A stretch of 64,000 nt of DNA from Desulfurivibrionaceae bacterium (lineage in GTDB: Bacteria > Desulfobacterota > Desulfobulbia > Desulfobulbales > UBA5123), in assembly GCA_030145325.1 (NCBI GenBank), contig JAQYVW010000002.1, positions 5,619 to 69,618 of the forward strand, given 5' to 3'. A model generated the notes under the pieces. It worked only from the letters and a program-made list of their open reading frames with translations, did no database searches and had not been told where the DNA came from. The first letter of the stretch is position 1. Every line of letters begins with the position of its first letter. This document shows, one piece after another, positions 46,581 through 60,287 of this stretch. A program made the translations under genes and the position numbers.

Positions 46581-46630
46581 AGATCTTTTAAGTTTGCCGA
46601 AAGTTGTTAAGGCACGGTGAATGAAAAAAA

Positions 46631-46669
46631 AGCGGGGGAGACATTGAAAATGTCTCCCCCGCTTTTTTT
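46631..46669. terminator. Bidirectional rho-independent terminator between convergent rpe and the EIDALL-repeat gene
   Basis: A 13-bp perfect stem (agcgggggagaca / tgtctcccccgct), flanked by an A-run (46624-46630) and a T-run (46664-46669). Confidence 0.85.
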
Positions 46670-46714: not shown

Positions 46715-49147
46715 TCAATTGGGGTAGGGCCAAGGCAGCATTTCTCCTGGGCAGCGTCCTTGCGGGCAGCCCGGTTCAACCGCGATGCTGCTGCCGTTGG
46801 ATCCACCTCGCCAGAGGGCGGCTCGTTGTCGGGAAACAGTGTTGATGGTGATTTGGCGCTGATTCACCTGGTGGTCGTCGTCGATGGCGGTGACCATTAT
46901 TTTCGGCCCGGAAGATGATGCGGCGGCGGTATAGAACGATGATGGAACCACAAAGGAGATGATGGAACCTTCTTCGTTCATTTTTTTGATCCGAATCGGC
47001 GTGCCGCCGGTTTGTTCCCAGTTGAAGTGCAGGGTGGCGCGATTTTCATCGCGGCTGGCACTGGCATCAATGGTTACCACCTCGCCCACTTGATAAGTCT
47101 TGGCCAGCGGGCTTACCTGAACTTGCGGTGGCGGCGTGCCCTTTGCCATCATCAGTCTAACCTTCCGTTTTGGGGAGTAGGTTTTGCCCATTTTAAAGCG
47201 GTAAGTGATGCTTTCGCGACCACTGAAATATGGATCAGGTTGGTAACGATATCGAGTTGGATTTACTTTGGATAATTGCCCATGCAAATCCTTGCCAAGG
47301 ATCTGGACGCTGACATTTTTACCGAAGGGGGCGCTATTGGCCTCTGCCCAGATTTTTCGCCAGTCGAGATCCAAGCTTTCGGTGCTGCGCATGGAGATGG
47401 TGATGTTTTTTGCGGTGGTGCCGGTTGCTTTCGGTTTTTCCGTCATGGCCATGGTTGGGGGGGGGGCGGCGAGATTAGGGCCGGAAATAACGATGTCCGC
47501 CGGTTCGCTTGCCCCTTGGCCGTCGCTGACCAGAAAGGTGAAGCGGTCTTCGCCGGGAAAGTTGTTGTTGGGCAGATAGGTTATTTGGGGAGGTTCTCCC
47601 GAAATTCTGCCGTGGGCAGGGGCATTGGTTATTTCAAAGGTGAGGGGGTCATCTTCCTTGTCGGCCGCGGTGAGTAAGATGGCCAGCTCGCCGCCCTTGG
47701 TAGGCATTTTGTAATCTGCAGCAACGGCCTGGGGCAAGGTATTGACTTCCTCCGGGGGGGCGGCCGTTTCCGGCACCAGTTCCGACATGGTAATGGCAGG
47801 TTTCTTGTTGGGGTGGAGGTAAAAATAGCCCCCGACGAGAAGTGCTAAACTGAGCATAGCAGCAGCGCCCATAACCTTTTTGTTCTTTAGCATCGCTAGT
47901 ATTGGCAGAGTTTTAGATGCTTTGTGCTCAGACATGGAGGTGATGGTTTCTTCTCCCACGGGGCCGTCGGCCAAAAAGTCCGGCAATGCCTGAGTAGCTT
48001 CATCATCATTGAAGAGGGCATTCGCGTCAACTGTCTCACCAGCGGTTATCGGTTCTTCGGTTCCTAAGGTGAAGTCTTCAGCGCTGAGGCCAAAATCTTC
48101 TTCGCCCAGGGTGAAGGATTCATCGTCTCCCTTGTCTTCGTCAAGTAGTTCTGTAAAATCAACCTCTTCAGATTTGAAGGACTTGTCTTTGGGGGCACTT
48201 TCTTCTTCGTTAAAATCGTTGAAGAGTTGGTCGATGTCGTCATCCTGACTGCCTGTATTACTTACTGTGCCGCCATCCATATCTCCGAAAAGATCATCGA
48301 TCTCGGATTGATCAATGGACTCGTCTCCGTTCGCGGCCAGGGATTCCAAGGCGTTGTCGGGAGCAAGATTGGCATCACTGGCATCGTTTTCACCAAATAA
48401 GGCGTCGATGTCATTTTGACTGACCGGGCCACTGTCGTCTGCACTTGCCGCGTCAACGGCCTGATCATCACCACCAAGCAGGGCATCGATTTCGGATTGA
48501 TCAATGGCGTCGTCGCCAGCGTTAAGTTCCGGCTCCGGCGTGGTCGCGGGCGTATCAACGTCCCCACTGAGCAGGGCGTCGATTTCGGATTGATCAATGG
48601 CGTCGCCGCCAGCGTTAACTTCCGGCTCCGGCGTGGCTGCGGGCGTATCACCGCCCCCGCTGAGCAGGGCATCGATATCTGATTGATCAATGGCGTCGCC
48701 GCCAGCGTTAACTTCCGGCTCCGGCGTGGCCGCGGGCGTATCACCGCCCCCACTGAGCAGGGCATCGATATCTGATTGATCGATGGCGTCGCCGCCAGCG
48801 TTAACTTCCGGCTCCGGCGTGGCTGCGGGGGTATCATCGCCCCCACTGAGCAGGGCATCGATATCTGATTGATCAATGGCGTCGCCGCCAGCGTTAACTT
48901 CCGGCTCCGGCGTTGCTGCTGGCGCATCACCGCCCAGGAGGGCATCAATGGCAGATTGGTCAATGGGCCCGTCTTGTTCGGCTGCTTCCGTTGGCGGAGC
49001 TGCTGCGGCCAGATCCTCATCGTTGTTGCCCAATAAGGCTTCATCGATGTCGGACTGATCTATTTGCGCACCGGTTTTGTCAGCTTCTTCAAAATCATCA
49101 AGCCAATCGTCTATTTCGGCAGAGGTGTTTTTTTCTTCATCGGCCAT
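46715..49147 (-). CDS. Single-pass membrane protein: an acidic cytoplasmic N-terminus with about nine FliM-N-terminus-like [IL]DQS[DE]IDALL motifs, one TM helix, and an extracytoplasmic Ig/cadherin-like region (810 aa)
   Basis: ATG at 49147. Motif copies are QIDQSDIDEALLG, PIDQSAIDALLGG, AIDQSDIDALLSGG (3 copies), AIDQSEIDALLSG, AIDQSEIDALLGG, VSQNDIDALFG and SIDQSEIDDLFG. The TM helix VMGAAAMLSLALLVGGYFYL is at about residues 425-444 (nt 47816-47875). The C-terminal region contains DPLTFEITNAPAHGRISGEPPQITYLPNNNFPGEDRFTFLVSDGQG. Confidence 0.85.
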   Translation of the reverse strand: MADEEKNTSAEIDDWLDDFEEADKTGAQIDQSDIDEALLGNNDEDLAAAAPPTEAAEQDGPIDQSAIDALLGGDAPAATPEPEVNAGGDAIDQSDIDALLSGGDDTPAATPEPEVNAGGDAIDQSDIDALLSGGGDTPAATPEPEVNAGGDAIDQSDIDALLSGGGDTPAATPEPEVNAGGDAIDQSEIDALLSGDVDTPATTPEPELNAGDDAIDQSEIDALLGGDDQAVDAASADDSGPVSQNDIDALFGENDASDANLAPDNALESLAANGDESIDQSEIDDLFGDMDGGTVSNTGSQDDDIDQLFNDFNEEESAPKDKSFKSEEVDFTELLDEDKGDDESFTLGEEDFGLSAEDFTLGTEEPITAGETVDANALFNDDEATQALPDFLADGPVGEETITSMSEHKASKTLPILAMLKNKKVMGAAAMLSLALLVGGYFYLHPNKKPAITMSELVPETAAPPEEVNTLPQAVAADYKMPTKGGELAILLTAADKEDDPLTFEITNAPAHGRISGEPPQITYLPNNNFPGEDRFTFLVSDGQGASEPADIVISGPNLAAPPPTMAMTEKPKATGTTAKNITISMRSTESLDLDWRKIWAEANSAPFGKNVSVQILGKDLHGQLSKVNPTRYRYQPDPYFSGRESITYRFKMGKTYSPKRKVRLMMAKGTPPPQVQVSPLAKTYQVGEVVTIDASASRDENRATLHFNWEQTGGTPIRIKKMNEEGSIISFVVPSSFYTAAASSSGPKIMVTAIDDDHQVNQRQITINTVSRQRAALWRGGSNGSSIAVEPGCPQGRCPGEMLPWPYPN
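48470..48967. repeat. In-frame 93-bp (31-aa) tandem repeat, about 5 copies, nearly identical at the DNA level
   Basis: The unit encodes TPAATPEPEVNAGGDAIDQSDIDALLSGGGD. Successive units start at residues about 77, 108, 139, 170 and 201. The central units differ by only a few bases by eye. Confidence 0.85.
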
Positions 49148-49211: not shown

Positions 49212-49748
49212 TTATTTTACCTTTTCAGTAAGAACGGTGGTGTGCAAAGCTCGGTAAAGCGGCTCGGACATTTCAACGGCAATCACATGGGAACGATTTT
49301 CGCCATATTCGTTGCGACCGCTGATGTGGATGCGCAGGTATCCGTCCACCTCCTGGATTAATCCGGTAAGTTCCTGGTTTTCTGAAGAGAGGTGTTTATG
49401 GGAGAACTGGGCGCGGGTTTCGTTATTGATCATGGCCAGCATCTGGTCGGCAAGGACCACCCCTAACATGGAAATTTTTCTTTTTGAAGCAATGGTTGCA
49501 AAGGGATGGACGATTACCTCGGTTGGAGTGAAAAAATCATAGAATGTACTAGTAGTATCATTGCAGATGTTGTTCACCAAGGACGTGAGTGACGAGTAGT
49601 TTCCTTTGTCTTTGCTGACAGCTTGTGGCGAATTTGCGTTAGCATTGTTTGTTGTCTGGCGGGCCTGGGCTGTCAAAGGGGCGCAGGCAATAATTAGCAG
49701 GCAGGCCCATGTAATCAGGGATGAGTTTATCTTTGCTGAGGTGCGCAT
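49212..49748 (-). CDS. Secreted protein, divergent member of the FlgO-like family encoded just upstream
   Basis: Signal peptide MRTSAKINSSLITWACLLIIACAPLTAQA. VIVHPFATIASKRKISMLGVVLADQMLAMINN aligns with VAVVDAVPLSDLKRETEFGRLISEYMLTDLAD in the next gene and LAVCSFVDLKKLTRTSSFGRYLAEQLMSEFQQ in the one after. Confidence 0.45.
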   Translation of the reverse strand: MRTSAKINSSLITWACLLIIACAPLTAQARQTTNNANANSPQAVSKDKGNYSSLTSLVNNICNDTTSTFYDFFTPTEVIVHPFATIASKRKISMLGVVLADQMLAMINNETRAQFSHKHLSSENQELTGLIQEVDGYLRIHISGRNEYGENRSHVIAVEMSEPLYRALHTTVLTEKVK

Positions 49749-49783
49749 GAGGTGTCCTTATCTTTACGTTGTTGATAATTTTT

Positions 49784-50590
49784 TTAGTGACTCATACCGT
49801 TGACGGCAATGGTGAATGGCTGTTCCGGGGCGTGGAAGAGGCCCAGCAGTTCGCGGTTCAACGGTAAGGTGTAGCGCCATGATGTTTCCACCAGGCCGGA
49901 TTTGAGGCCCACCAGTCTGCCTTGCAGGATCAGGGTTTTCCTGGTGTTGGTGAAGGTGGAGACCAGAACATAATCCAGCATGGGAGAATCAGTTGCCAAT
50001 TCACCGATGTTGCGGGAGAGAATGAATTCACCGGTCTGGGGCAGAATGTTGATCTCCTTACCCATTCGTAATTCGGTGACCTTGAGGCCCCGGTCAGCAA
50101 GATCGGTAAGCATGTATTCGGAGATAAGCCGACCAAACTCTGTTTCGCGTTTTAGGTCAGACAGGGGCACGGCGTCAACCACAGCTACTCTGGCGGTGAG
50201 GTGTTTATCGCCGTCTTGTTTTAATTCGTAATAGACCTTACCGGCGATCTCTCGGCAGAATTCCGATAACTGTTTTTCCGTACCTAGAGATTGGGAAGCA
50301 TCAGGGGTGTATTCATAGATATAGGGAACGGTTTTTGCCACGGTGGTAGCGGTGGGGGGGGCTTCGGTAACAGCCGGAGTTTCATGCGTTGCCACGGGTG
50401 GTTCTGTAATAACCGGAGCTGTTTGCGTTGCCATGGGCGGTTCTGTAACAACCGGAGCTGTTTCTGTCACCATGGGCGGTTCTGAAACCGCAGTTTTGTT
50501 TGGTGAAGATGGCACTGTCGCACAACCCGTGCTTATTAGCAGACCAAGCCCGATGGTGCAGATCGCCAGGCGTGTGATGGATTTTTTCAT
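49784..50590 (-). CDS. FlgO-like lipoprotein with a Pro/Thr-rich repeat linker
   Basis: The ATG at 50590 gives MKKSITRLAICTIGLGLLISTGC (lipobox). The linker is EPPMVTETAPVVT / EPPMATQTAPVIT / EPPVATHETPAVT. The globular part ARVAVVDAVPLSDLKRETEFGRLISEYMLTDLADRGLKVTELR...GEFILSRNIGEL...VLVSTFT...LILQGRLV resembles FlgO/LpoB-type envelope proteins, by motif recall. Confidence 0.55.
   Translation of the reverse strand: MKKSITRLAICTIGLGLLISTGCATVPSSPNKTAVSEPPMVTETAPVVTEPPMATQTAPVITEPPVATHETPAVTEAPPTATTVAKTVPYIYEYTPDASQSLGTEKQLSEFCREIAGKVYYELKQDGDKHLTARVAVVDAVPLSDLKRETEFGRLISEYMLTDLADRGLKVTELRMGKEINILPQTGEFILSRNIGELATDSPMLDYVLVSTFTNTRKTLILQGRLVGLKSGLVETSWRYTLPLNRELLGLFHAPEQPFTIAVNGMSH
50361..50489. 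repeat. In-frame 39-bp (13-aa) tandem repeat, about 3.3 copies, inside the lipoprotein linker
   Basis: Plus-strand units are ggttctgtaataaccggagctgtttgcgttgccatgggc (50400-50438) and ggttctgtaacaaccggagctgtttctgtcaccatgggc (50439-50477), with a diverged copy at 50361-50399 and a partial copy after 50478. Confidence 0.75.
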
Positions 50591-50670
50591 TTCTGTTCCT
50601 CCCCAGGAAGCCTTCAAATGTTCGTTTTCGGTGTTATTGGTATGATAAATTATGTAATTATTTATGAATA

Positions 50671-51393
50671 TTATAATTCAAGTCGTTTCATGTAGACAAC
50701 GTCTCGCTCACCGGTTTGGGCTGAGGCTCGGTCTGCCAACAGGGTGGCCACAAGCTGATTGCGCGGAAATATCAGCGTAGAGCTGGTGAGCATGGTGGAG
50801 TTGCGGTTATCGATAATCCTGGCGTTGACCAGAACATTATTTCCGGCCAGGGTATAGGTGCCGGTGAGCACAGCCCCGGCAGTTATGGACGGATTCAAAT
50901 CCTCCGGGTTTCGGGACAGGGTGTACTCGCCGCGTTTTTCCTGAATCATCAGGCTGGTGGTTTTACGCATTTCGACCACCGTGTAGCCACGTTGTTGGAA
51001 TTCACTCATCAGTTGTTCGGCCAGGTAGCGGCCAAAGGATGAGGTGCGGGTGAGTTTCTTGAGATCAACGAAGGAGCAGACGGCAAGGCCATCGGCAAGT
51101 TCTCCCACTTGTGGATCGGCATCGGCGAGGTGGTTTTCCAGTTCCTGGGCCATCAGTCTAATGGAACCGGCCAGGCCGGTTGCCTCTTGGGATGTTTGCG
51201 CCGTGGTCGCCACCGTGGTCACGGTTGGTGGTAGCGGTGGGGCGGCGAGAACCGGCGAGGGAAGAAGCCAGGCCAGGGTGAGCAAGGTTGAGGCTACGGA
51301 GAACAGGTAATGGCGCCTGTTGGTGGTAGTAGTACCCAACGAGTTAGATGGCGAGGGTTGCATATCTGATCTCTCTTCGTTAGTGTTGAACAT
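50671..51393 (-). CDS. FlgO-like secreted protein, first gene of the operon
   Basis: The core is LAVCSFVDLKKLTRTSSFGRYLAEQLMSEFQQRGYTVVEMR...GEYTLSRNPEDL...AVLTGTYTLAGNNVLVNARIID. The signal-like segment is HYLFSVASTLLTLAWLLPSPVLA. The start is probably the ATG at 51393 or 51363 rather than the GTG at 51438. Confidence 0.55.
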   Translation of the reverse strand: MFNTNEERSDMQPSPSNSLGTTTTNRRHYLFSVASTLLTLAWLLPSPVLAAPPLPPTVTTVATTAQTSQEATGLAGSIRLMAQELENHLADADPQVGELADGLAVCSFVDLKKLTRTSSFGRYLAEQLMSEFQQRGYTVVEMRKTTSLMIQEKRGEYTLSRNPEDLNPSITAGAVLTGTYTLAGNNVLVNARIIDNRNSTMLTSSTLIFPRNQLVATLLADRASAQTGERDVVYMKRLEL

Positions 51394-51455
51394 TTTGAAC
51401 CCGAATCTGGTTAGGCATAAGGCTTCGAGTTCTGTCACTTTAGAGTTTTATAACC

Positions 51456-51483
51456 CATCGGTATGATGATCTTTTTTCTTTAA
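51456..51483 (-). promoter_or_regulatory. Weak sigma-28 (FliA)-like promoter candidate upstream of the FlgO-like operon
   Basis: The minus strand reads TAAAG-aaaaaagatcatcata-CCGATGG, compared with the enteric consensus TAAA-N15-GCCGATAA. The spacing is off by one and the -10 element is partial. Confidence 0.2.
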
Positions 51484-51665
51484 TGGAAAAATGTGTGGTC
51501 GGTGACGGCTGTTGGCTGAATTTAACCTCTAGGCGGCTTGGATTACCAGATGTGGTGTAGGGTAATCCTCCGATACCGCTAAATATTGATCACTTGTTCC
51601 TGGCGGCTTGCTAAAAAAAATTGCGAAGTCGGTTGTTGCTGGGGAAAAGAAGGAAGCAAAAGACC

Positions 51666-52178
51666 ATGTCCGATAAGGAAAATTATTTATGCGATGAGGT
51701 TTTAATCCTCAGCGATTCAGGTGAGATTCCTGAGATCGCTTATCATACTACGCTCTATTATTTATGTGAAGATCCTGAGGGGCCGAATCTGACCTTGGAT
51801 GAGCGAGATCTGGCCCGGTTACAGGATGCGGTGCTGGCGCGTTGTCGGTGGATTATTATGCGGGATCTGGACCCGGAAAACCGGGGCGAAGGAATCTATC
51901 GAGGGGTGGCGCGCAGCAAGGCGAACTGGCAACGTCTTAAGAATTTTTGCCGACGGCAGGGGCGTGATGAGCCGGTGGAGCCCTTGCGGGGGGAGGTTGC
52001 CCAGGCCTTGCTTGATTTTTTGGGGCGGGAACTGGCCGAGGTGAAGGAAGGTGCTACTTCCTCTCTGAATTGTTGCCTTGCCGACCTGGAAGCCTTTGTG
52101 GTGGAGCTTGGCCTTGTCCCTGCCCTGTTGCCGGTGGGCTGGGAAAAACTCTGCCCAAAGCCCGAAGAAATAGTTTGA
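51666..52178 (+). CDS. Hypothetical cytoplasmic protein
   Basis: The ATG at 51666 is preceded by GAAGGAAG. The sequence MSDKENYLCDEVLILSDSGEIPEIAYHTTLYYLCEDPEG... matches no family I recognise. It is divergent from the FlgO-like operon. Confidence 0.5.
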   Translation: MSDKENYLCDEVLILSDSGEIPEIAYHTTLYYLCEDPEGPNLTLDERDLARLQDAVLARCRWIIMRDLDPENRGEGIYRGVARSKANWQRLKNFCRRQGRDEPVEPLRGEVAQALLDFLGRELAEVKEGATSSLNCCLADLEAFVVELGLVPALLPVGWEKLCPKPEEIV

Positions 52179-57339: not shown

Positions 57340-58986
57340 TTATGAGCGTAATGAGTGCAGAAGCTCAAGGGCATTGTCGCCGTCTTCCGGAAAGGTTGCG
57401 GTTTTGATCCGCAGTTCCAGGTTGGTGTCCAGTTGTTGCACCGCTGTATTGATTACTTCCGGAGCCTCCATACTATCATGCATGGGGAGAAGAATCGCCA
57501 CCGTATACAGACCGATACGGCTGCATTCATGAACCACGGAGATGTTTTTCGAGATGTCCACCGCCAGTTGTTGCACTTCATCTGAGGCTTCTTGAGCGCC
57601 CTTTTCTCCACAGATGTTGTTATAGTCCTTGATGCTGATCAATGCCAAGGAGAGGCTGCCGAAGTAATCGCGCATCTTGCTAATCTCGTCCTCAATGGTG
57701 GTGGTGAAGGCGTTGAAAGGACCTGCCTGCATGTCTTGCTTCGCCGCCTGATTCAGGCCGATTTGAAAATGCGGGGCCAGTGAGGTCGCAATGATGGCAA
57801 AGGATTTTTGTAGTTCTTCGTTGTCGATTTCCATGTCGGTTACGGCATGGACGGTGATTACGCCCACGGTGTTGCCGGAAGCTTTCAGGGGGACGACCAT
57901 GAACTCTTCCAGATCGTCGCAGCCGTTGGCAATGAAGGTTGCGCCCTGGTCGATGGTTTCACGTTGTTTGCTCAAGCAAGAGATGATGGTCGAGGACTTT
58001 GTCGGCTCCAAACCGTAAGTGCCTCGTTCCTGGATGGCGCCAGCGCCGTCCACCGCGAAGATCGCACATTCCTGCACATGGAAACCAAGGCTCAGCGCTT
58101 TTAAGATCAGGTCGACATTGTCGTTGATGGAATCACTCTTGTTGAGAATTTCACTGACATTAAAGAGAGCCATCAGTTCTTCCATCTGGGTTTTGATTCG
58201 TTGATTGCGCGCTTCAATGGTGTTCATCAGAGAATCGTAGGTGCTGTTGAGAATATCGATTTCGTCCTTGCCGTGCACCACGGTGTCGGCATTAGCTTCC
58301 TCGTCGCCGGCATACTGCATCTTCATTAACAGCTTGCGCAGTGGCTTCTTGACAAGAATATTGCCCAACAGAAAGCAGAGGATGATGGACGAGAGTAAGG
58401 TTGCCACTGCCGAGAAAATCAGCAATTTCCGGTTGTCGATGACCATCTTGTCGATGTCGTCGGTGGTGAAATCCACCATCAGCTTGCCCAGGACGTCGGT
58501 TTCCGGGTCGTGGCATTGGTGACAGCGTTCTTTGTTATGGATGGGGTTGACGTTGCGGAGAACCCGCGAGCCATTTTCGTCGGTGAAAAAGACGGTGAGG
58601 TTTTGCTGACTCAGCTGTGCTTTCTCATGGCAGATGCGGCAACTTTCCGCTGACTGGTCAAGCTGGACGTCGATGTCGTCATGGTCCTTGGCGTATTTTA
58701 CCGTGGCGTCCAGATCGATAATCTTGATGTCGCGGACCATGCTTTCTTTACCCACCGAGTCGATGATGAGTTGAAGTCCTTCGCCCTCATCGCCCAGCAT
58801 GGCATTCTCTAAGCTGCTCTTAATGGCGCTGCTGACCTTCGATGCTTCGCCGGTGGCGAGGTTCAGTAGCCGTTTTTCCGATAGTTTAACGCTGGCATTG
58901 GAAAAAAGGCTTATTACCGCAAACAGGCCGATGGTCATGGCCACGGCCATTTTGAAGCCGATACTGAACTTTACTTTCATTTTCAT
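57340..58986 (-). CDS. Membrane sensor: periplasmic di-heme c domain, TM, GAF domain, and a degenerate GGDEF-like domain
   Basis: TM1 is AVAMTIGLFAVISLF. Two CXXCH motifs in the periplasmic loop are CRICH and CHQCH. TM2 is LLIFSAVATLLSSIILCFLLGNILV. GAF-like: FHVQECAIFAVD...FMVVPLKASGNTVGVITVHA. The C-terminus LSLALISIKDYNNICGEKGAQEASDEVQQLAVDI...CSRIGLYTVAILLP shows GGDEF-fold spacing but has IGLYT in place of GGDEF. Confidence 0.7.
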   Translation of the reverse strand: MKMKVKFSIGFKMAVAMTIGLFAVISLFSNASVKLSEKRLLNLATGEASKVSSAIKSSLENAMLGDEGEGLQLIIDSVGKESMVRDIKIIDLDATVKYAKDHDDIDVQLDQSAESCRICHEKAQLSQQNLTVFFTDENGSRVLRNVNPIHNKERCHQCHDPETDVLGKLMVDFTTDDIDKMVIDNRKLLIFSAVATLLSSIILCFLLGNILVKKPLRKLLMKMQYAGDEEANADTVVHGKDEIDILNSTYDSLMNTIEARNQRIKTQMEELMALFNVSEILNKSDSINDNVDLILKALSLGFHVQECAIFAVDGAGAIQERGTYGLEPTKSSTIISCLSKQRETIDQGATFIANGCDDLEEFMVVPLKASGNTVGVITVHAVTDMEIDNEELQKSFAIIATSLAPHFQIGLNQAAKQDMQAGPFNAFTTTIEDEISKMRDYFGSLSLALISIKDYNNICGEKGAQEASDEVQQLAVDISKNISVVHECSRIGLYTVAILLPMHDSMEAPEVINTAVQQLDTNLELRIKTATFPEDGDNALELLHSLRS

Positions 58987-59237: not shown

Positions 59238-60287
59238 TTATTCTCCTAACTGGGCGCTTTCGATCTTCATATTTTGTACGAAAAAGGCAGTTTTGTCCAC
59301 TGGCGCAGTAAGTACCCGGTTGCAGTTTTCGATGGTGATTTTTGTTTTCGGGTGACCCTGCTTGGTGATAATGATCCGGTTGCTACCCAACGCTTCAGTG
59401 ATTTTTTTTCTGACTACTTCCTTGTGGCTCTGGCCCGAAATAATTTCTCCGGCAACCTCTCTGAACCGCTTAATATCCATGGCCATCTGCACTTTATCTT
59501 CATAAGGAAGGGTTTCGATATTCTTCCCAAGTTTTTTTACCAGGTCGATGGTGTTTTGTAGCCGGTGTTGTTCTCCTTGCAAGTTAATGTGGTTTTTATC
59601 GATGGCAAGGAGTTCTTGGAAAAGGGCGCGACACTCTTTCGGTTTGACCAGAAGCTGGCAGGGGGATTGGCCATCCCCACATTCTTTAACCCTGATTCTG
59701 GTTTGACTGTAGATCTTCGAGTTGGTGACCGTGCCTTCAATGCGGAGACGACCTTTGGCGGCAATGGTACTGTCGGTGACGTCGCCGTCGATGACCACAT
59801 CACCAATGCAGCGAATGTCCACCGAGGAGAACGGTTCAATGGAGGTATTTTTGATGGTGACGCGATCGGCGGCACTGAGGATGATGTGTTTGTCGCTGGA
59901 ACCTTGAATCTTACCGACGATAACCACTTCTCCCTTGGCGCTAGTGATGTTGCAGCCAGGGTCGATGTTGCCGTTGATGGTGACGGTTTCCCCAGCTTCG
60001 ATTTTGGTTTCTGGCGGTACATCACAGCAGAGTTCCACTGCCCCATTAAAGGTTATGTCTTCCGTTATCTCTGATGGGGCCAGGGTTTCTCCCGGTTTGC
60101 CGAGGTAACCATCCGGAGTGACGACGGTCACGTCGGTAATGCCCCGTTCTTTGAGCCTTTGCACGAATGTGCTTGAAAGTTCCACGCCGCGAGCAATAAT
60201 GGGCAGTTCGCCGCCGAATTCATGGTCGAAGATGTCGGCAGCCACTACCATGCCGTTGCTTATTTTGTCTAAGGAAACTTTTCTCAT
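59238..60287 (-). CDS. FapA-like (DUF342) protein
   Basis: The central beta-helix has periodic G-[DN]-[IV] turns (INGNIDPGCNITSAKGEVVIVGKIQG, IRCIGDVVIDGDVTDSTIAAKGRLRIEGTVTNSKIYS). A C-terminal coiled-coil follows (LFQELLAIDKNHINLQGEQHRLQNTIDLVKKL). Confidence 0.65.
   Translation of the reverse strand: MRKVSLDKISNGMVVAADIFDHEFGGELPIIARGVELSSTFVQRLKERGITDVTVVTPDGYLGKPGETLAPSEITEDITFNGAVELCCDVPPETKIEAGETVTINGNIDPGCNITSAKGEVVIVGKIQGSSDKHIILSAADRVTIKNTSIEPFSSVDIRCIGDVVIDGDVTDSTIAAKGRLRIEGTVTNSKIYSQTRIRVKECGDGQSPCQLLVKPKECRALFQELLAIDKNHINLQGEQHRLQNTIDLVKKLGKNIETLPYEDKVQMAMDIKRFREVAGEIISGQSHKEVVRKKITEALGSNRIIITKQGHPKTKITIENCNRVLTAPVDKTAFFVQNMKIESAQLGE

Follow-up and report, generated by a model that had tools for sequence, protein, structure and literature searches.

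Within a 64,000-nucleotide stretch of DNA from a Desulfurivibrionaceae bacterium (contig JAQYVW010000002.1; this whole stretch is referred to as the window, and positions are counted within it), four co-directional open reading frames (ORFs), here termed A, B, C and D, were read from the minus strand of the sequence. A sequence-only reading of this locus had described three paralogous FlgO-like envelope proteins encoded in an operon with a gene for an array of EIDALL peptides, which raised the question of whether the four genes form one unit and whether that unit serves the flagellum. Our analysis indicated that the operon probably encodes a flagellar accessory that has not previously been described. 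This flagellar reading was drawn from the membership of A and B in the FlgO family, the retention of gene order, a conserved promoter motif upstream of A and the presence of EIDAL arrays in protein D.

Gene order and transcription signals of the A-B-C-D locus

The four genes are separated by gaps of 80 nt (A-B), 35 nt (B-C) and 64 nt (C-D), the last of these being exactly the distance given in the earlier reading. That reading was also accurate in recognizing three consecutive minus-strand genes with export signals, as a lipobox is present in B and Sec-type signal peptides in A and C. In order to examine the retention of this arrangement, a genome scan seeded with an alignment of A was performed on one genome per species and returned 78 loci. 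Nearly all of these were labelled as Desulfobulbia-type or unclassified deltaproteobacterial isolates or metagenome-assembled genomes (MAGs), the exceptions being a MAG labelled Promethearchaeota with the full block (L054) and an Alteromonadaceae contig (L084) that gave the weakest match and was without B, C and D. Synteny was counted for A orthologues followed by 4.2 kb or more of sequence, which gave 58 loci. Both B and D were found downstream of A in all 58, and A-B-C-D were colinear in 56, so that the linkage of FlgO-like genes to the EIDALL-array gene, which the earlier reading had singled out for comparison across genomes, was found to hold. The gene for C was absent from L013, L047 (4898-5047) and a metagenomic locus, L004 (4308-4374), where D directly followed B, indicating that C is dispensable in some lineages. 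Homologues of D were restricted to the Desulfobulbales (Desulfobulbaceae, Desulfurivibrionaceae and Thiovibrio). A block consisting of two FlgO genes, a gene for a protein of ~180 amino acids and a gene for a Big_9 protein recurred in two Thiovibrio genomes, and the block was intact in distant metagenomic relatives (27 to 30% identity in D), in which the upstream neighbour had changed from DUF7826/CN_hydrolase to a cation-efflux/Crp pair.

The downstream end of the locus is marked by a bidirectional intrinsic terminator (46626-46669, not assigned to a strand), identified from sequence and folding and common to the operon and the convergent rpe gene. It comprises a 13-bp GC-rich stem with A8/T7 flanks and is followed by U8, and folding of the hairpin gave -39.8 kcal/mol (z = -7.6), confirming the terminator that had been proposed at this end of the genes. 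A consensus terminator scan overlooked this hairpin, which is the strongest of the region. No terminator-like sites were detected by the terminator scan between A, B, C and D on the minus (coding) strand. A sigma-70-like match, TTGTCT-18-TATAAT (10/12), in the very AT-rich spacer between A and B (50591-50670) may serve as an internal promoter for B, C and D. Overall, there was strong support from gene order and sequence for A-B-C-D being a single operon specific to the Desulfobulbales and presumably producing a single transcript.

A candidate promoter of the sigma-28 (FliA) type, TAAAG-N16-CCGAT, was located on the minus strand at 51457-51482, approximately 95 to 120 nt upstream of the start of A and preceded by a T-rich tract. 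This was the single match in the 64-kb window, for which 0.16 matches were expected. When the 400 nt upstream of A were examined on the strand of A, the motif was present in 55 of 71 loci, compared to a mean of 0.4 for shuffled sequences. Comparison of 51 distinct sequences demonstrated that the TAAAG and CCGAT blocks were invariant and held at a fixed spacing while the 16-nt spacer was free to vary, the -35 element being preceded by a T-rich tract and CCGAT being followed by G(A/T)T. A search of both strands of 1.25 Mb of loci placed 58 of 59 exact matches upstream of A; the remaining match (L072:1302) lay inside a coding ORF and was taken as chance. The sequence-only reading had thus been correct in noting a sigma-28-like motif at this position, but its rating of the motif as marginal was not borne out by this degree of conservation, which proved to be the strongest finding of the analysis.

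The structurally defined sigma-28 elements of the Pseudomonas aeruginosa fliC promoter are TCTAAAG and GCCGATAA (PMC12784957). The TAAAG and CCGAT core blocks of the operon motif correspond to these elements and the T-rich upstream tract is likewise similar. Differences lie in the base preceding CCGAT, mostly A in the operon motif instead of G, and in the bases that follow this block, G(A/T)T in place of AA. No sigma-54 motif was present upstream of A in any of the 71 loci, and a promoter of that kind was rejected. No exact TAAAG-N16-CCGAT match was present in L085, a flagellar cluster from another lineage. The assignment of the operon promoter to the sigma-28 (FliA) type is a well-founded inference.

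Proteins A and B and the placement of protein C

Gene A (50671-51363, minus strand) encodes a FlgO-domain protein of 230 amino acids that is predicted to be secreted to the periplasm by the Sec pathway and signal peptidase I. The start was placed at the ATG at 51363 because a 100%-identical database protein (P0144) has 230 amino acids and because a purine-rich stretch precedes this ATG; a conserved MQPSP N-terminus also fits this position. The ATG at 51393 given in the earlier reading (50671-51393) is less likely; it would lengthen the protein by 10 residues and is not preceded by a ribosome-binding site. A Sec-type signal peptide ending in SPVLA/APP (the slash denotes the predicted cleavage site) was read from the sequence, and the orthologues of A have AxA-type Sec signal peptides and no lipobox. 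A Tat signal (NRRHYLF) was rejected because orthologues do not share its RR pair. In many orthologues of A, a conserved FWPF directly follows the predicted cleavage site (AQA/FWPF); this motif is not found in the window copy (VLA/APPLPP).

Gene B (49784-50590, minus strand) encodes a predicted outer-membrane lipoprotein, in which the lipobox is followed by a Pro/Thr-rich tether of ~80 residues and then by a FlgO domain. The N-terminus reads MKKSITRLAICTIGLGLLISTG followed by the lipobox Cys (LLISTG/C, with Ala at +2), and a lipobox was present in most of the B orthologues inspected by eye. A 39-bp tandem repeat of 3.2 copies (50363-50488) encodes part of the tether, giving a linker of the form EPPxxTxTAPVxT.

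Both proteins matched the Pfam FlgO model (PF17680) at scores far above the gathering cut-off of 22.6, with 122.7 bits (1.1e-35) for A and 89.3 bits (2.4e-25, residues 121-246) for B, and the A orthologues carry precomputed PF17680 assignments. Comparison of A with B by BLASTP detected 28% identity over 189 amino acids (E = 6e-15), and a profile of the A family built from 26 orthologues matched the solved Vibrio cholerae FlgO chains 9YDS and 9YFG with an E value of 3e-20 over 113 residues. These results indicated that, by sequence, A and B are true FlgO-family proteins. The A orthologues are already named 'FlgO family outer membrane protein' by NCBI, so the family assignment alone is not new; JGI uses 'TolB-like protein' for homologues of A.

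The AlphaFold2 (AF2) model of A had a predicted local distance difference test score (pLDDT) of 74, with values of >88 for the domain. Its best fold match was the LpoB C-domain (E = 2e-5, TMt 0.60), followed by GNA1162, TolB-N, PelC, HpaA, CsgG and FlgT. The connection drawn in the earlier reading between FlgO and the LpoB/CsgG type of fold was thus confirmed for A and extends to B by homology. As LpoB, PelC, CsgG and FlgT are ring-forming or outer-membrane-tethered relatives, these matches were taken to favour a flagellar reading.

The same matches also provide a basis for a different explanation, in which A, B and C would act in a non-flagellar envelope system, such as peptidoglycan-synthase activation, polysaccharide export or outer-membrane tethering, with D being an Ig-like adhesin or scaffold and the promoter and EIDAL motifs being mere look-alikes. 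Three of the solved folds closest to A are LpoB, TolB-N and PelC, the JGI name points in the same direction, and B has the LpoB design of a lipid anchor, a long flexible linker and a globular domain. Furthermore, a second, paralogous triplet encoding two FlgO proteins and a lipoprotein of ~209 amino acids was observed in three MAGs (L083:9626-11903, L081:9653-11576 and L080:9302-11172); this triplet adjoins dnaJ/purA and has no D-like gene, and in two of the three MAGs it occurs in addition to the A-D operon. Its lipoprotein has a weak LpoB match (E = 0.28), and a sigma-54-type element, TGGCATGGAAAATGCTT, is found upstream of the triplet in L080 and L081. Set against these similarities, neither A, B nor C matched the LpoB sequence model (PF13036) at an E value of ≤1 or the PelC and CsgG models, and there was no evidence for a penicillin-binding protein, Pel or curli partner. 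A non-flagellar system would also leave unexplained the two-block sigma-28 -35/-10 motif of 55 of 71 lineages, the conserved FliM-N-matching peptide arrays of D and the site of another EIDAL-array gene in a flagellar cluster. We consider this explanation improbable.

Gene C (49212-49748, minus strand) encodes a small secreted periplasmic protein of 178 amino acids with a Sec-type signal peptide (LTAQA/RQ). A possible lipobox (IIAC) was rejected, as the single Cys of the h-region is not conserved in homologues. This protein had been counted as the third FlgO paralogue, and the earlier claims of a common ancestry and of a FlgO resemblance were supported by sequence for A and B but not for C, in which the shared core block is absent. 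No match to C was obtained from Pfam, even at an E value of ≤10, or from NCBIfam, and BLASTP of C against A or B detected nothing (E > 1). The 23 homologues of C are all from the Desulfobulbales. When 1.84 billion representatives were searched exhaustively with a HMMER profile, the family comprised only 49 clusters, with lengths of 80 to 220 amino acids and no tail or bridge into FlgO or other families.

The possibility that C is a trimmed third copy of the FlgO paralogues was weighed against these results. An hhalign comparison of C with A gave a probability of 62% (E = 7.5e-5), restricted to an N-terminal helix-strand-helix (beta1-alpha2) unit that contains the sole recognizable echo of the core block, LGVVLADQMLAM in C versus FGRYLAEQLMSE in A. 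One C homologue had a sub-threshold FlgO match on this same segment (E = 0.08). Residues 54-170 form a confident core (pLDDT >80) in the AF2 model of C, and the order of elements in this core, namely helix, strand, helix, three-stranded meander and helix, is that of A minus the beta2 strand and a hairpin segment. Among the matches listed by Foldseek for this model in the PDB, the LpoB C-domain (4q6l) had the highest probability and TM-score (probability 0.99, TMt 0.44, E = 0.02), and the weakly LpoB-like lipoprotein of the L083 triplet also occupies a third position. When a deeper and broader alignment of C was utilized, however, the hhalign probability dropped to 17% for A and was 3% for B; Foldseek produced no PDB match at an E value of ≤0.001, and C did not match the third protein of the L083 triplet. 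Together with the absence of BLASTP and Pfam matches and the closed family, these findings make the three-paralogue version doubtful. By sequence, C is not demonstrably a FlgO paralogue and is better described as a lineage-restricted family, while its predicted structure suggests that it may be a trimmed member of the FlgO/LpoB fold class.

The EIDAL array of protein D

Gene D (46715-49147, minus strand) encodes a bitopic inner-membrane protein of 810 amino acids with Pfam matches to Big_9 (5e-18) and Cadherin_5 (8e-11). The only hydrophobic helix is a single transmembrane segment, VMGAAAMLSLALLVGGYFYL (residues 425-444; 47816-47875, minus strand). The disordered tail formed by residues 1-410 is highly acidic (117 acidic versus 7 basic residues), and the C-terminal part consists of Big_9/cadherin-like and PKD-like domains. 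As there is no N-terminal signal peptide, the tail is predicted to be cytoplasmic and the Ig-like domains periplasmic (N-in/C-out).

Nine copies of the motif [IV][DS]Q[SN][DEA]ID[AED]L[LF] are arrayed along the tail (residues 29-287; 48287-49063, minus strand). Five of these are contained in a 93-bp tandem repeat of 4.9 copies (48477-48935) in the central part of the array; GDAIDQSDIDALLSGG is a repeat peptide of D. The repeat copies are 93% identical, indicating a recent expansion of the array. More than 100 homologues of D were identified in the Desulfobulbales, most of which have two to seven motifs within an overall range of 0 to 7 or more, so that, from sequence comparison, the copy number seems to be evolutionarily labile.

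The extreme N-terminus of the D homologues is also conserved (residues 1-16; 49102-49147), with the consensus MAEEK...EIDDWLDDL and nearly invariant D13, W15 and L16. Further short motifs common to the tails of the homologues are PSQDDxDxLF, GFDxDEFxFGD and PDFLAE, and these short motifs are possibly additional docking sites.

The repeat peptide IDQS[DE]IDALLSGG matches the N-terminal EIDAL peptide of FliM and FliY (LSQxEIDALL) position by position, and the array gave a weak NCBIfam match to the N-terminus of FliY (NF005995, positions 3-42). The arrangement is different, as FliM and FliY have one EIDAL copy on a C-ring protein whereas in D nine copies are spread along a disordered tail, and this membrane protein has no FliM/FliN domain. 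The EIDAL peptide of the FliM N-terminus is a high-affinity site for phosphorylated CheY (CheY-P) and is necessary and sufficient for the binding of FlhG (10.1101/2022.04.21.489128).

Arrays of this type were also detected in proteins other than D. The P0115 family, which is unrelated to D, consists of single-pass membrane proteins of 456 to 561 amino acids with seven to nine [LV][IV]SQSDIDALL motifs. P0115 itself (456 amino acids) is encoded in a flagellar cluster (L085:10001-11371), directly after flhF, flhG and a gene for a sigma-28-type (fliA-like) sigma factor, and this position connects EIDAL arrays with flagella. The FliM protein of the same locus begins with MGEILTQNEVDSLLSG. The C-terminal domain of P0115 had no Pfam match, and a resemblance to FliL that had been considered was not confirmed by Pfam. 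Another protein, P0113 (1000 amino acids; L086:8001-11003), has at least 19 EIDAL-type motifs in near-perfect 23-amino-acid repeats, and its gene adjoins an MptE-like (PF01973) gene. The PF01973 domain occurs in Maf flagellin-glycosylation proteins. A full-text search of the literature for EIDAL or EIDALL arrays returned only papers on FliM/FliY and noise.

The properties of D raised the alternative that the operon specifies a polar landmark or hub instead of a part of the motor. D would then be an acidic scaffold of the HubP/FimV type that recruits ParA/MinD-type ATPases such as FlhG and is anchored in the envelope by Ig-like domains and FlgO-type proteins in place of LysM. HubP/FimV proteins combine a periplasmic LysM anchor domain and a transmembrane region with an extended acidic part in the cytoplasm and a C-terminal FimV domain, and they interact with FlhG (PMC12918733; 10.1101/2022.04.21.489128). 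A similar architecture is apparent in D, with its single helix, periplasmic anchoring part and long acidic, repeat-containing tail, and the sufficiency of EIDAL for FlhG binding and the adjacency of an EIDAL-array gene to flhF-flhG-fliA would both fit such a role. By contrast, D has neither a LysM nor a FimV C-terminal domain according to Pfam, its topology is reversed with the repeats being N-terminal, and these repeats are EIDAL peptides. Moreover, sigma-28 typically controls late structural genes and chemotaxis genes and not an early landmark. A polar hub is therefore judged to be unlikely, though less so than a non-flagellar envelope system.

A proposed flagellum-associated trans-envelope module

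The genes surrounding the operon are housekeeping genes, namely rpe, a gene for an M16 peptidase, lgt, CN_hydrolase and CstA. A DUF7826 gene (51621-52178) is divergent from the operon, both here and in Thiovibrio; its replacement by cation-efflux/Crp genes in the more distant relatives indicated that it is not part of the module. Genes for an MCP-sensor-like protein (Mcp40H-20_sensor, 8e-9; 57340-58986) and a FapA-domain protein (2.7e-16; 59238-60287) are located on the same strand as the operon, 6 to 9 kb upstream. No sigma-28-like site was found in front of either gene.

Several observations weigh against an involvement of the operon in the flagellum. Its location is outside and not near any flagellar gene cluster, and this housekeeping context is what a non-flagellar envelope system would lead one to expect. 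No genes for FlgP or FlgT partners were found within the operon or its flanks, protein A has no lipid anchor, unlike Vibrio FlgO, and the same genomes have FlgO-domain proteins in further contexts that appear to be non-flagellar. The exact promoter motif is missing from 16 of the 71 loci and has a spacer 1 nt longer than that of P. aeruginosa fliC, which served as the reference in place of proven flagellar promoters of this lineage. The reference for flagellar motility is similarly Desulfurivibrio and not the organism of the window. Desulfurivibrio is motile by one or two 'thick' subpolar flagella (PMC12142623). The operon is present in this genus, as judged from C homologues and four loci (L024, L046, L049 and L073). 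The description of Thiovibrio frasassiensis contains no mention of motility.

Even with these observations taken into account, we place somewhat better than even confidence in A-B-C-D being a FliA-driven, flagellum-associated trans-envelope module of four parts encoded by a single Desulfobulbales operon. In the model that we infer, transcription would start at the FliA (sigma-28)-type promoter and end at the strong terminator. B would be held in the outer membrane as a lipoprotein with its Pro/Thr-rich tether extending into the periplasm, and A would be its soluble periplasmic paralogue. By analogy with Vibrio FlgO, A and B would oligomerize under the outer membrane at the base of the flagellum, while C would be a small periplasmic adaptor that has been lost in some lineages. 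D would span the inner membrane, its periplasmic Ig-like domains docking on A, B and/or C and its acidic tail presenting a multivalent set of FliM-N mimic (EIDAL) peptides that may concentrate CheY-P and/or the flagellar-number ATPase FlhG.

The closest known system is that of Vibrio, in which FlgO is an outer-membrane lipoprotein that forms a C58 (58-fold) ring adjacent to FlgP within the H-ring (10.64898/2025.12.02.691832). The existence of this outer-membrane-bound ring makes the formation of a ring or disk by A and B a reasonable analogy. Similarities between the two systems are the common family PF17680, the alignment of the A profile to 9YDS, the predicted lipoprotein nature of B and, judging from the promoter motif, a probable flagellar-type control of expression. 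The differences are that the Desulfobulbales operon has two tandem paralogues, of which A is not lipidated, has no FlgP or FlgT and lies outside flagellar clusters, and that its FlgO proteins are coupled to a bitopic protein with an EIDAL array and to a small protein specific to this lineage. A BLASTP survey found no FlgO-type accessory proteins in deltaproteobacteria (PMC5758724), and no description of the four-gene operon, its sigma-28-type promoter or the coupling of FlgO to an EIDAL array was found in the searchable literature.

Periplasmic and outer-membrane additions to the motor, such as the H-ring, basal disks and PflA/B cages, account for differences in torque and sheath formation and are known mainly from gamma- and epsilon-proteobacteria. 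A FlgO operon that is probably driven by FliA represents a concrete candidate for such an addition in the Desulfobulbales, a sulfur-cycling order of environmental importance. Among the elements of this operon, the EIDAL array is the most original, and a membrane-tethered multivalent display of EIDAL peptides would, if true, be a new way to localize or buffer regulators of chemotaxis and flagellar number. More tentatively, a FlgO-type ring of A and B, together with C, beneath the outer membrane may be linked by the Ig-like ectodomain of D to a multivalent cytoplasmic 'sponge' of FliM-N mimics that holds CheY-P and/or FlhG at the motor or pole and thereby tunes switching kinetics or flagellar number. 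Should this be the case, EIDAL arrays on single-pass membrane proteins, as in D, the P0115 family and the 19-copy P0113, would constitute a general and previously unrecognized design.

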